NCBI RefSeq assembly: GCF_058153355.1
Contig: NZ_CM177019.1
DNA length: 64,000 nucleotides
Strand: one strand, 5' to 3'
A model generated the notes under the pieces. The model saw only the letters and a program-made list of their open reading frames with translations, did not search any database and had not been told where the DNA came from. Shown piece by piece: positions 1,919 through 25,095 of the stretch (the stretch's first letter is position 1; each line of letters opens with the position of its first letter). Both the position numbers and the translations under genes were made by a program.

Positions 1919-5819
<3,901 letters not shown>

Positions 5820-18694: not shown

Positions 18695-19984
18695 ATGAAA
18701 GTATTAGTGATTGGTAATGGCGGGCGCGAGCACGCGTTGGCCTGGAAAGCGGCCCAGTCGCCGCTGGTTGAGACTGTTTTTGTTGCTCCGGGTAACGCAG
18801 GCACTGCACTGGAACCCGCGCTGCAAAACGTCGCTATCGGCGTGACCGATATCCCGGCACTGCTAGATTTCGCGCAAAATGAAAAGGTAGATTTAACCAT
18901 CGTCGGCCCGGAAGCGCCGCTGGTGAAAGGCGTGGTCGATACCTTCCGAGCCGCCGGGCTGAAAATCTTCGGACCAACCGCAGGCGCCGCACAACTGGAA
19001 GGCTCGAAAGCGTTTACCAAGGATTTCCTGGCCCGCCATAAGATCCCTACGGCGGAATACCAGAACTTCACCGAGGTAGAACCTGCACTGGCGTATCTGC
19101 GTGAGAAAGGCGCGCCAATCGTCATTAAAGCTGACGGTCTGGCTGCCGGGAAAGGCGTGATCGTGGCGATGACGCTGGAAGAAGCTGAAGCCGCCGTGCA
19201 CGACATGCTGGCGGGCAACGCTTTTGGCGACGCGGGTCATCGTATTGTTATCGAAGAGTTCCTCGACGGCGAAGAAGCGAGTTTTATCGTGATGGTGGAC
19301 GGTGAGCATGTGCTGCCAATGGCCACCAGCCAGGATCACAAACGCGTAGGCGATAAAGATACCGGGCCGAACACGGGCGGTATGGGCGCTTACTCCCCTG
19401 CGCCAGTGGTGACCGATGAAGTTCATCTGCGCACGATGGAACGTATCATCTGGCCAACCGTGAAAGGTATGGCGGCGGAAGGCAACACCTACACCGGTTT
19501 TCTCTATGCGGGCCTGATGATCGACAAACAGGGTAATCCGAAGGTTATCGAATTTAACTGCCGCTTTGGCGATCCGGAAACCCAGCCGATTATGCTGCGC
19601 ATGAAGTCCGATCTGGTTGAACTCTGCCTGGCGGCCTGTGAAGGCAAGCTGGACGAGAAAACCTCCGAGTGGGATGAACGCGCTTCTCTTGGCGTGGTGA
19701 TGGCTGCGGGTGGATATCCGGGCGATTACCGCACCGGCGATGTGATCCACGGCCTGCCGCTGGAAGAAGTGGAAGGCGGTAAGGTGTTCCACGCGGGCAC
19801 TAAACTGGCGGATGACGAGCTGGTGGTAACCAGCGGCGGGCGCGTACTGTGCGTCACCGCGCTGGGTCATACCGTGGCAGAAGCGCAGAAACGCGCTTAT
19901 GCCTTAATGACCAATATCCATTGGGACGATTGCTTCTGCCGGAAGGATATCGGCTGGCGCGCCATCGAACGCGAGCAGAACTAA
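18695..19984 (+). CDS. purD: phosphoribosylamine-glycine ligase PurD (429 aa)
   Basis: ORF 18683..19984; known N-terminus MKVLVIGNGGREHALAWK starts at 18695. Confidence 0.95.
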   Translation: MKVLVIGNGGREHALAWKAAQSPLVETVFVAPGNAGTALEPALQNVAIGVTDIPALLDFAQNEKVDLTIVGPEAPLVKGVVDTFRAAGLKIFGPTAGAAQLEGSKAFTKDFLARHKIPTAEYQNFTEVEPALAYLREKGAPIVIKADGLAAGKGVIVAMTLEEAEAAVHDMLAGNAFGDAGHRIVIEEFLDGEEASFIVMVDGEHVLPMATSQDHKRVGDKDTGPNTGGMGAYSPAPVVTDEVHLRTMERIIWPTVKGMAAEGNTYTGFLYAGLMIDKQGNPKVIEFNCRFGDPETQPIMLRMKSDLVELCLAACEGKLDEKTSEWDERASLGVVMAAGGYPGDYRTGDVIHGLPLEEVEGGKVFHAGTKLADDELVVTSGGRVLCVTALGHTVAEAQKRAYALMTNIHWDDCFCRKDIGWRAIEREQN

Positions 19985-21306: not shown

Positions 21307-22679
21307 CCTTGTGGGTCCTTACGCGTAATATTGACCGGAAGCCAGAGGGTGAACGTTGCACCTTTCCCCTCCTGGCTTACGACCTGAATTGTACCACCGT
21401 GTTGTTCAACAATATTATGCACAACCGCCAGCCCCAGTCCGGTGCCTTCGGCTTTGGTGGTGAAGTACGGGGTGAAGATAGCTTCAAGCTGATCCGCCGC
21501 AATTCCCTTACCGCTGTCGGTTACGCTTATTTTAACGCCTGCGCTGCTTTCGTTGGCCGTCACGCTAATCACGCCATGCTGACCAATCGCCTGAATAGCA
21601 TTGAGATAGAGATTCAACAGGACCTGAGTCAGTCGGTCCGGATCGGCCTGTATCTCCGGCAATGCGTCGTTGGCGGTAAAGCGTAATTGGATCTCCCTAC
21701 TGTTTGCATCCTGGCTTACCAGTTGTAATGAGTGGTTAATCAGCGTGTTGAGATCCACCGCCTGCAAAGCCAGATGCGTTGGCTTAACCAGCTCCAGCAG
21801 CTCGCTTACCACGCGGTTTAAACGGTCGGCTTCTTTCGCCATCACCTGCGCCAATTGATGTGCTTCTCCTCCTGCTGGTGCACGTTCGGCAAAATATTTC
21901 GCCAGCCCTTTAATCGAGGAAAGAGGGTTACGGATTTCATGGGCGACGCCTGCGGCCAGATGTCCCAGCGCCACCAGCTTCTCTTTGCGCTTCATTTCAT
22001 CCTGTAACAGCTGGCGCGAGCGAAGATAGCGGCGATACCAGAAGAATGACAACACGCTTGCCAGCAAGACCGTCGCCAGGGCGAAGAGGATAATCAGGGT
22101 GTTTCTCTGCTCACGCTCTTCGGCACTCACAATGTTACTGGCGTCGAAAGCGATAAAAATTGCTTGTGGTGTCGTGGCATACTGCTGCATATGGCGCATC
22201 CGGTGCATTCCAGCAGCAAACATCGGTTGAAACTGGCGATAAATTTCCAGAACAGGCTCGCCGTCTGCGCTATCGATCCGCCGCCACGCTTCTTCGTCTC
22301 CCGGATGTAACTGCTGCATTTCCTGCGGGGAATAAAGCTGTTTTCCCACCATGCCGGAGTTGCTATGCATCACGATTGTTCCTTGTTCATCCGTGACCGC
22401 AAACCAACGCACTCCTGGCTGCCCAGCCATTTCTTCCAGTAAAGCCTGCTGCTGCGCATGATGCATGCGCATCCCCATACCGACGCGCGAGCCGGATTCG
22501 AGAGCGCGGATAAGTACACTGCCTTTTTCCAGCAGAGTTTGTCTGGCGGCGGCAGTCTCGCGCCCATAATCGCGAATCACGGTCACCGCAAACAACCCCA
22601 CCAGTCCAACAATGACTACGGGAAGGATCGCGCTTAACCATTTTGCTAAGGCATCTTTTGATCGCTGCATAAAACGCAT
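21303..22679 (-). CDS. zraS: sensor histidine kinase ZraS/HydH (458 aa)
   Basis: ORF 21303..22679 minus; H-box HEIRNPLSSIKG and ATPase motifs; 4-bp overlap with zraR. Confidence 0.92.
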   Translation of the reverse strand: MRFMQRSKDALAKWLSAILPVVIVGLVGLFAVTVIRDYGRETAAARQTLLEKGSVLIRALESGSRVGMGMRMHHAQQQALLEEMAGQPGVRWFAVTDEQGTIVMHSNSGMVGKQLYSPQEMQQLHPGDEEAWRRIDSADGEPVLEIYRQFQPMFAAGMHRMRHMQQYATTPQAIFIAFDASNIVSAEEREQRNTLIILFALATVLLASVLSFFWYRRYLRSRQLLQDEMKRKEKLVALGHLAAGVAHEIRNPLSSIKGLAKYFAERAPAGGEAHQLAQVMAKEADRLNRVVSELLELVKPTHLALQAVDLNTLINHSLQLVSQDANSREIQLRFTANDALPEIQADPDRLTQVLLNLYLNAIQAIGQHGVISVTANESSAGVKISVTDSGKGIAADQLEAIFTPYFTTKAEGTGLGLAVVHNIVEQHGGTIQVVSQEGKGATFTLWLPVNITRKDPQG

Positions 22680-22710
22680 CTTCTTCTTTGCCTGTTCATC
22701 CCTTTTTGAC

Positions 22711-22726
22711 AGCAGAAATCATGCCA
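22711..22726 (-). promoter_or_regulatory. putative sigma54 promoter for zraSR
   Basis: Minus-strand TGGCATgatttCTGCT approximates the -24/-12 consensus TGGCAC-N5-TTGCA. Confidence 0.4.
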
Positions 22727-22865
22727 TCTTTTATTAACACTTACCCTGCGCTTTAACACAAAGGCTTAAGTTTCAATGAGTAAAAATGACTCGCTACACA
22801 CAGCAGGCGAGTCATTTTTACTCGTTTATCATGTCATATTGCCCGTCATATCAGCGTTTCGCCGT

Positions 22866-22881
22866 TGGCACGAAAGATGCA
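22866..22881 (+). promoter_or_regulatory. sigma54 promoter for zraP
   Basis: TGGCACgaaagATGCA matches the -24/-12 consensus; 36 bp upstream of zraP ATG. Confidence 0.6.
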
Positions 22882-22916
22882 ATACCCGAAGTAAGACAAC
22901 CACTGGAGGATTAACC

Positions 22917-23336
22917 ATGAAACGGAACACGAAAATTGCCCTGGTGATGATGGCGCTTTCAGCAATGGCGATGGGATCGACATCTGCATTTGCTCACGGC
23001 GGACACGGTATGTGGCAGCAAAATGCCGCGCCTTTGACCAGCGAACAACAGACAGCGTGGCAGAAAATCCATAATGACTTTTACGCTCAAAGCAGCGCAC
23101 TGCAACAGCAACTGGTGACGAAGCGTTATGAATACAATGCCCTGTTAGCCGCGAACCCACCGGATAGCAGCAAAATTAACGCGGTCGCCAAAGAGATGGA
23201 GAATTTGCGTCAGTCGTTAGATGAGTTACGGGTGAAACGAGATATTGCGATGGCTGAAGCGGGTATTCCGCGCGGTACCGGAATGGGTTACGGCGGCTGC
23301 GGTGGTGGCGGTCATATGGGTATGGGCCACTGGTAA
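22917..23336 (+). CDS. zraP: zinc-resistance-associated periplasmic protein ZraP
   Basis: ORF 22776..23336; start assigned to ATG at 22917 (MKRNTKIALVMMALSAMAMG signal peptide) with ggagga RBS; Gly/His-rich C-terminus. Confidence 0.9.
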   Translation: MKRNTKIALVMMALSAMAMGSTSAFAHGGHGMWQQNAAPLTSEQQTAWQKIHNDFYAQSSALQQQLVTKRYEYNALLAANPPDSSKINAVAKEMENLRQSLDELRVKRDIAMAEAGIPRGTGMGYGGCGGGGHMGMGHW

Positions 23337-23337
23337 A

Positions 23338-24033
23338 TCAGAACGTTTTCTCGTTGGGTTGCCAGCGACAGAAATCAGAGTTTGCCACTAACAGTAATTG
23401 CGAACCTTCGGGCGCTTCCAGCCATGCCACGCTGACATCAACAGAAGAGCGGCTCTGGCGGCGCTCGATATGCGCTATCGCCTGCGAATCTAAATCAGGT
23501 TTAATGGTTTGCCCTTCGCAGGTGGTCACGGTCTGTTCCATCGCATGCCAGCGCCCCTGGCGCAGCACGACTCTCCCCTGACGTAAGGCATCGCTAATCT
23601 GGCGGATCTGATCAGCACGATAACGGTATAAATCGATTTGGTCGTTAGAAAGCTGCTGTTTTTCCCCGTCGGATTCACGTTGCATAAAGCTCAGATCGCC
23701 GCGATCGTCAAAACGCGCGCGAATATTCACCGGCGGTTTGCTGTAAACATTGATATTGATAAGCGTGAGGTTATCGCCCTGCCAGCGATACTCTCGCGTC
23801 GTGGTATCGCCACTGCGCCACGGGCTAAACACAGCAAGCAGATGCACATTATTGCCACTGTCTTTTCGCCAGATACGTACCGCGCCCTGATCTTCAGCAA
23901 ATCCACTGGCGGTAAAGGGAGGAAGTGAAGAGTTGTGACTACAGGCAGTGAGAAACAGAGCGCCCGCCAGCATCAATGATCGACGCCAGAAAGACAAAAG
24001 GGGTGAAACCACCCCTTCGTTAAAACTGTTCAC
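23338..24033 (-). CDS. yjaH: DUF1481 lipoprotein-like protein YjaH
   Basis: ORF 23338..24039 minus (GTG start); lipobox-like LTAC; start ambiguous between 24039 and 24033. Confidence 0.8.
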   Translation of the reverse strand: MNSFNEGVVSPLLSFWRRSLMLAGALFLTACSHNSSLPPFTASGFAEDQGAVRIWRKDSGNNVHLLAVFSPWRSGDTTTREYRWQGDNLTLININVYSKPPVNIRARFDDRGDLSFMQRESDGEKQQLSNDQIDLYRYRADQIRQISDALRQGRVVLRQGRWHAMEQTVTTCEGQTIKPDLDSQAIAHIERRQSRSSVDVSVAWLEAPEGSQLLLVANSDFCRWQPNEKTF

Positions 24034-24045
24034 TGCCACGCAATC

Positions 24046-24318
24046 TTACTTAACTGCGTCTTTCAGTGCCTTGCCAGAAACAAATGCCGGCACGTTAGCT
24101 GCGGCAATTTTGATTTCTTTACCGGTCTGCGGGTTGCGGCCAGTACGCTCAGCGCGGTGGTTCACTTTGAAGGTACCGAAACCAACCAGTTGTACAGCAT
24201 CGCCTTCTTTCAGAGACTCAGTAATTGCAGCCAGAGTGGACTCCAGAGCAGCTTTAGCCTGGGTTTTGGACAGTTCTGCTTTCTCTGCAATTACATCAAT
24301 CAGTTGAGTCTTGTTCAT
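24046..24318 (-). CDS. hupA: DNA-binding protein HU-alpha (90 aa)
   Basis: ORF 24046..24318 minus; product [26 protein letters not shown]... recognised as HU-alpha. Confidence 0.97.
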
Positions 24319-24504
24319 AAGTTATCCTTACAATGTGTTTATCGCTTGCTAAGCATCGAGTGCGACGGAAATGCCAGAATAGCACTCTCCTGCATACACG
24401 CACCGATAGCCACTTTTTTTCGCCCCCCAAATGTAGACCAGACGGGGGGCGAAAGGGAAGACTCCAGGTATGACAAATCAGGCGTTAAATCACGTTTTCT
24501 GGTC

Positions 24505-25095
24505 TTATTGCTGAAAAATTATACCAATATTGCTCTCGCCCGCCTCACGCAGGTCTGCCCTAAGGCCTTTTATCAGCTCGATATCGCGTTCTTCGCACTC
24601 AGCTAAAAGTCGGAATATTTCCCACTGAATGTCCCACTCTTGCTCTACAGCTGGGTTTTCTTTGAGCTCTTCATCGCTCATTTCACGGCCAGCCTGAGTC
24701 ATTTCCAGCATCGCCACGGTCGTGATGGAGGTCTTACTCACTTCTACCGCGTGTTCGAGCGTTTCGCCACTTAAACGCGAATGGACCAGTTCACTTAACG
24801 CCACGCAAGCATCGATTGCCGGATAAACGCCGTACAGTTCGAAATCGTCGGCTGAAGGAATCGCTTCTTCAAATTTCTCCAGTTGGCTGTCGAAATTTAC
24901 TTTTGCGTCTTTGACGGTCAGCGTTTCCCAGATGAGATCGAGAATACGGCGGTAAATTTGCCCATCACCAAAACCAGTTTGCTGACAGAATACGGCGTAA
25001 TTAGGGTACATGCGTTCGCATAAGCAGGCCATAAAAGTGACGTGCTGCCAGCTTTCCAGGCGCTCCAGACGCAGATGAATTGGGTTTTGTAACAT
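24505..25095 (-). CDS. yjaG: DUF416 protein YjaG (196 aa)
   Basis: ORF 24505..25095 minus; recognised by sequence and synteny. Confidence 0.88.
   Translation of the reverse strand: MLQNPIHLRLERLESWQHVTFMACLCERMYPNYAVFCQQTGFGDGQIYRRILDLIWETLTVKDAKVNFDSQLEKFEEAIPSADDFELYGVYPAIDACVALSELVHSRLSGETLEHAVEVSKTSITTVAMLEMTQAGREMSDEELKENPAVEQEWDIQWEIFRLLAECEERDIELIKGLRADLREAGESNIGIIFQQ

Follow-up and report, generated by a model that had tools for sequence, protein, structure and literature searches.

The convergent genes zraP and yjaH of Escherichia coli most likely meet at a compacted, terminator-less tail-to-tail junction, where the 3′ end of each transcript is formed by Rho inside the partner gene and the resulting overlap is tolerated. 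We analyzed a 64,000-nucleotide stretch of E. coli DNA from contig NZ_CM177019.1 (RefSeq assembly GCF_058153355.1), referred to as the window. Published data show that yjaH-strand transcripts continue past the stop codon into the antisense of zraP, are stopped by Rho ~100–200 nt in, and read on when bicyclomycin is present (PMC7815308).

A single nucleotide separates the zraP and yjaH stop codons

The zraP gene (22917..23336, + strand) opens with an ATG at 22917, closes with a TAA at 23334–23336, and encodes periplasmic ZraP, a 139-residue protein of the Metal_resist family (Pfam profile search, E = 1e-23). On the opposite strand, yjaH (23338..24033, − strand) encodes a DUF1481 lipoprotein (Pfam DUF1481, E = 7e-73) that runs from an annotated GTG start at 24033 to a TGA at 23340–23338, read as TCA on the + strand. 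The convergent stops make up a TAA-A-TCA junction (23334..23340, both strands) in which A23337 is the sole intervening base. The sequence of 23325–23350 is GGCCACTGG TAA A TCA GAACG, and the codons around the junction read CAC TGG TAA A TCA GAA CG. An earlier note on this DNA had placed the zraP TAA at 23334–23336 and the yjaH stop at 23338–23340 with one nucleotide between them; these coordinates are exact, and the gap in the RefSeq annotation agrees.

The same 1-nt gap is annotated by RefSeq in the closest strain, E. coli 2013C-4282 (99.9% identical), and again in K-12 MG1655, where yjaH occupies 4200566..4201261 and zraP complement 4201263..4201688. The locus was found in 5420 of 5426 complete E. 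coli genomes. The 61 nt centered on the junction are identical in 5262 of these 5420 genomes, the others having a few substitutions and zero indels. Two of the 5422 matches to the zraP–yjaH region fall on plasmid-labelled records, which may reflect a mis-assigned replicon or a plasmid-captured chromosomal segment. Compared with K-12, zraP in the window lacks 6 nt (Gly-Met) at 23282/23283, within an ATGGG(C/T) repeat of the Gly/His-rich tail, and this deletion accounts for a ZraP length of 139 residues versus 141 in K-12. Both zraP lengths are present among E. coli genomes, in which the 1401-nt query spans either 1401 or 1407 nt.

The junction lacks a recognizable intrinsic terminator

A gap of one nucleotide was said in the earlier note to leave no room for a terminator, and the consensus scan, the relaxed scan, and the folding analysis all bear this out. 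The consensus scan found no intrinsic terminator, defined as a G+C-rich hairpin followed by a U tract, between the stops or just after them; across 22300–24700, the sole relevant terminator it identified is that of hupA (24018–23997, − strand). Folding the junction against shuffled sequence revealed no significant structure, with z-scores of −1.4 (+ strand) and −0.2 (− strand), and a relaxed hairpin-plus-U scan detected no terminator within ~150 nt of the junction in either direction. An Rfam search of 22300–24700 returned two nonsense matches only, both far below threshold. Bidirectional intrinsic terminators between convergent genes answer the same need, that of ending two convergent transcripts, but the Escherichia zraP–yjaH junction is without any such element.

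The relaxed scan yields a few candidates at larger distances. On the zraP strand, a poor candidate comes first, 462 nt downstream, followed at 679 nt past the stop by the reverse face of the hupA terminator. The tail of this reverse face is TTCGTTAAA, and a zraP transcript would meet no hairpin with a partial U tract before it. On the yjaH strand, the scan gives a single weak hairpin (−9.6 kcal/mol) that ends at 23177 and carries an ATTTTG tail.

Rho stops transcripts beyond the yjaH stop codon

Directly downstream of the yjaH stop, the − strand carries a C-rich, G-poor untranslated stretch (23168..23337), antisense to the Gly-rich ZraP tail, which is a candidate Rho loading (rut) region. The C/G ratio over the first ~170 nt past the stop is 2.0–2.55 in 78-nt windows, compared with a window-wide 99th percentile of 2.27, and this composition resembles that of Rho loading sites. 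Past the zraP stop, the ratio on the other strand is 0.9–1.5 over the first ~300 nt and never exceeds 1.8 within 600 nt. The − strand past the yjaH stop contains no annotated gene, and its ORFs of at least 40 aa occur only within the zraP antisense and are unsupported; the untranslated stretch is longer than the ~50–80 nt expected of a Rho terminator. Rho-dependent termination of transcripts entering antisense territory was reportedly described by Peters et al. in 2012.

In MG1655, Adams et al. (eLife 2021) mapped a Rho termination region at 4201402 (+) and classed it as antisense to zraP (PMC7815308, Supplementary file 2). The upstream/downstream coverage of this region is 444/40 −BCM and 294/456 +BCM, with a Rho score of 17.2 and a p-value of 9e-85 (PMC7815308). 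It lies 141 nt beyond the yjaH stop. When transferred to the window by alignment to MG1655, allowing for the 6-nt deletion, it falls at 23195..23210 (~23203, − strand), a position that is approximate and of coarse resolution, as Rho scores derive from 800-nt windows (PMC7815308). The published region coincides with the C-rich, G-poor stretch past the yjaH stop. The curated Term-seq tables, which cover three growth conditions, hold no 3′ end on either strand of MG1655 4200700–4201799 (PMC7815308), and the missing discrete ends fit the expectation for trimmed Rho-dependent ends. The zraP strand has no Rho region entry in this data set (PMC7815308); zraP is not induced in LB.

The yjaH-strand region is one of >500 antisense Rho regions in these data. 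It resembles the antisense Rho termination described by Adams et al. 2021 (PMC7815308) in having untranslated RNA from the stop onward, a C-rich and G-poor stretch, and bicyclomycin-sensitive read-through. It differs in that the likely rut, seen in the sequence and not in published rut mapping, comes from the antisense of a Gly-rich coding tail. The table also places Rho regions in the antisense of purD (MG1655 4204911) and of arpA (4220399), and 51.5% of all 1078 Rho regions are antisense to genes (PMC7815308). Because purD and arpA belong to the other two zero-gap convergent pairs of the window (see below), and because the antisense share is so large, Rho termination inside the neighboring gene is the general E. 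coli solution and not a peculiarity of zraP.

Flanking elements: the hupA terminator and the zraP promoter region

The intrinsic terminator hairpin of hupA (23997..24018, − strand) falls within the beginning of the yjaH ORF and spans codons ~6–13 from the annotated GTG at 24033. The corresponding Term-seq 3′ end in MG1655 (4200605; 102752 reads) is scored at 5.8 as an intrinsic terminator, with a Rho score of 0.74 (PMC7815308). In 15 Enterobacterales loci, the GTG is conserved 13 nt past the hupA stop, the yjaH frame is open from this GTG through the hupA hairpin into the WRR...LTAC lipoprotein signal, and the hupA stem covaries (GGGGTG/CACCCC, GGGGCG/CGCCCC, and GGGGCT/AGCCCC). A yjaH start at the ATG at 23973, downstream of the hupA terminator, was considered and rejected: this Met is unconserved, whereas the upstream GTG and the RR-containing n-region of the signal peptide are conserved. 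Since the hupA terminator sits within the conserved yjaH frame, YjaH would be made only from hupA read-through transcripts or from a promoter inside hupA. Expression of yjaH seems to require read-through of the hupA terminator, possibly coupled to translation, and translating the first yjaH codons could interfere with this terminator.

At the other end of zraP, a perfect long inverted repeat (22776..22825) is located between the divergent zraS and zraP sigma-54 promoters and folds into a hairpin of −29 kcal/mol (z ~ −8.3 on either strand). We take this repeat to be the ZraR enhancer-binding site of the zraP–zraS intergenic region, as reportedly described by Leonhartsberger et al. (2001). The zraP promoter, TGGCAC-N5-ATGCA (TGGCACGAAAGATGCA; 22866..22881, + strand), was read from the sequence and matches the zraP promoter in PMC2831329; its spacer is one base off K-12 (GAAAG versus GGAAG). 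The zraS promoter (TGGCATGATTTCTGCT; 22711–22726) is divergent from it on the − strand.

The yjaH–zraP spacer varies among related genera

With YjaH as the query, we gathered 32 loci from other species. The spacer between the yjaH and zraP stops is 1 nt, in the context TGAtTTA, in five Escherichia species and in Trabulsiella odontotermitis. It measures 12 nt in a Pluralibacter genome, 18 nt in Citrobacter sedlakii, 41 nt in Salmonella enterica subsp. diarizonae, where it contains a REP-like hairpin, and 86–88 nt in the Citrobacter amalonaticus group, where it contains REP-type repeats. The REP/BIME-like repeats of the Citrobacter amalonaticus and Salmonella diarizonae spacers (four loci) read GCCGGATG... 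and CTGTAGGCC(G/T)GATAAGCGTAGCGCCATCAGGC. Their presence implies that insertions at the junction are tolerated by both genes.

At 21 of the 32 loci, no zraP was found as a neighbor of yjaH; there, yjaH mostly faces the end of a purD-like gene, recognized from its C-terminus. A hairpin, often a textbook bidirectional terminator, lies between the two (~3630–3720 of the locus); an example from relatives without zraPSR is AAAAAAACCGCCACGCGGGCGGT. The Cedecea and Buttiauxella versions of this yjaH–purD hairpin have the classic layout of a bidirectional terminator (A-tract/hairpin/T-tract). In Escherichia, a zraP–zraS–zraR block lies between yjaH and purD, spacerless at both edges (+1 nt and −4 nt), and the yjaH–purD hairpin of the zraPSR-less genomes is missing.

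Zero-gap convergent pairs are common in E. coli

Convergent CDS–CDS pairs were counted from the RefSeq annotation, and pairs with 1 nt or less between their stops were scored as zero-gap. Three of the seven convergent pairs in the window fall into this class. Besides zraP/yjaH, these are arpA (+) and aceK (−), which overlap by 32 nt (4067–4098), and purD (+) and zraR (−), which overlap by 4 nt (19981–19984) and bound the zra block on its other side with a second terminator-less junction. Three 50-kb stretches of MG1655, chosen arbitrarily with starts at 1.0, 2.0, and 3.0 Mb, contain 21 convergent pairs, six of which overlap outright. In the pooled sample, about one-third of convergent E. coli pairs (9/28) have 1 nt or less between stops, and the zraP/yjaH junction is statistically ordinary for E. 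coli.

The overlap between the two transcripts has been cataloged. Table 1 of ExcludonFinder (Sanmartin et al., NAR 2025) lists yjaH–zraP, zraR–purD, and aceK–arpA (PMC12288877), and its core set comprises convergent transcription units whose overlap was seen in ≥50% of the 58 MG1655 RNA-seq data sets (PMC12288877). A listing is almost automatic from geometry, since eight of nine sampled zero-gap convergent pairs appear in it. The earlier note had also argued that each transcript must end inside the partner gene. This holds directly for the yjaH strand, given the Rho region 141 nt past the stop (PMC7815308) and the ExcludonFinder listing (PMC12288877); for zraP running into yjaH, the geometry and the RNA-seq listing (PMC12288877) suggest it. 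The note's further idea, that the overlap has special weight when Zn/Pb induces the sigma-54 zraP promoter, is speculative. A literature search found no work specific to zraP termination or to yjaH.

Alternative explanations for the junction

The spacerless junction would be an annotation artefact if one of the two ORFs really stopped earlier and left a normal intergenic spacer, a general possibility for a protein as uncharacterised as YjaH. A mis-annotated stop codon is extremely improbable and was rejected: the final position of the DUF1481 profile is matched, at residue 229 of the 233 that are translated, YjaH always ends in (E/A)KTF* in the 32 loci of other species, and ZraP always ends in MG(H/N/R)(W/G)* wherever zraP is present in the same set. 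Both stops are therefore genuine: the C-terminal peptides persist from genus to genus, and only the spacer changes in length (1–88 nt). The 3′ ends could instead be set by cryptic intrinsic terminators inside the partner CDS, with yjaH ending at the 23177 hairpin and zraP at the hupA reverse face at 24015. Both candidates were detected by the relaxed scan, the hupA hairpin folds well on either strand (−15.4 and −17.2 kcal/mol), and the ExcludonFinder authors report TransTermHP predictions of overlapping terminators in 146 of 165 convergent pairs (PMC12288877). However, the U tracts of the two candidates are poor (ATTTTGCTG and TTCGTTAAA), the 23177 hairpin reaches only −9.6 kcal/mol, and Term-seq reports no peak at either candidate on the relevant strand (PMC7815308). 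We consider this explanation unlikely because read-through on the yjaH strand is strongly bicyclomycin-sensitive, with a Rho score of 17.2 (PMC7815308). The weak ATTTTG-tailed hairpin ending at 23177, near the mapped Rho region, could contribute to termination.

The overlap itself may be read in another way, as a functional convergent excludon in which the two genes, forced to overlap at their 3′ ends, antagonize each other because RNA polymerases collide, RNase III cleaves the duplex, or both. Zn/Pb-induced zraP would then lower yjaH, and hupA–yjaH read-through would damp basal zraP. Like the convergent excludons of PMC12288877, yjaH and zraP are adjacent opposite-strand genes arranged tail-to-tail, with overlapping transcript ends and hardly any spacer, and the pair itself is in the core list. 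An excludon is defined by mutually exclusive expression via interference or RNase III, however, and the likeness of yjaH–zraP concerns geometry and overlap. In favor of a function, the junction does not vary within Escherichia, and that of Trabulsiella is the same. RNA-seq under mercury stress shows zraP up 3-, 27- and 43-fold (PMC5769350), and with metal induction of 27- to 43-fold, the antisense flux over yjaH could be large. Set against this, the core listing is nearly automatic for zero-gap pairs (8/9 sampled), and p19 dsRNA capture validation is not feasible for convergent excludons according to the ExcludonFinder authors (PMC12288877). The tables of the mercury study considered here give zraP and not yjaH, and no reciprocal-expression data were found for the two genes in them. 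Salmonella and Citrobacter keep both genes with spacers of 18–88 nt and hairpins, so a tight junction is needless for either gene. On balance, a functional excludon is rather unlikely. It is also unlikely that the terminator-less junction is a selected metal-responsive switch, in which the glycine-tail codons double as a Rho loading site that shields zraP and zraSR. If it were, Zn/Pb or envelope stress would drive strong sigma-54 transcription of zraP head-on through yjaH to the hupA terminator, the lipoprotein YjaH would be silenced, and hupA termination would perhaps be altered. The two strands of one DNA stretch would then carry different information, one a protein tail and the other a termination signal.

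A model for 3′ end formation at the zraP–yjaH junction

We favor Rho-dependent 3′ end formation inside the partner gene, with a tolerated overlap. When the ribosome leaves at the yjaH stop, the RNA left naked would be antisense to the glycine tail of ZraP with its many GGN codons and, for this reason, would be C-rich, G-poor, and suited to Rho. The same Rho site would also shield zraSR from hupA–yjaH read-through, given that hupA, yjaH, zraS, and zraR share a strand. Upon activation of the sigma-54 promoter by ZraR, zraP transcripts would run antisense into yjaH, through mildly C-rich sequence. The induced zraP ends would probably be diffuse and Rho- or collision-dependent, and transcripts that went further would meet a last barrier in the reverse face of the hupA terminator, 679 nt past the zraP stop; this is how we infer zraP-strand 3′ end formation under induction. 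The 3′ overlap, which covers at least ~135 nt of zraP, would mainly be a tolerated by-product of compaction and not a dedicated regulatory device. Against the by-product view, the fixation of the junction across Escherichia and its recurrence in Trabulsiella could reflect selection for the overlap.

The junction and its transcript overlap are already annotated and published, are common in kind, and have little importance on their own. They provide a tidy teaching example and, zraP being strongly and specifically zinc-inducible, a test case for the regulatory effect of an enforced 3′ overlap, for which Salmonella and Citrobacter, with spacers and hairpins at the yjaH–zraP junction, are natural controls. 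The zraP–yjaH pair is one case of a frequent E. coli pattern, in which about one-third of sampled convergent pairs are spacerless and reliant on Rho inside the neighboring gene.
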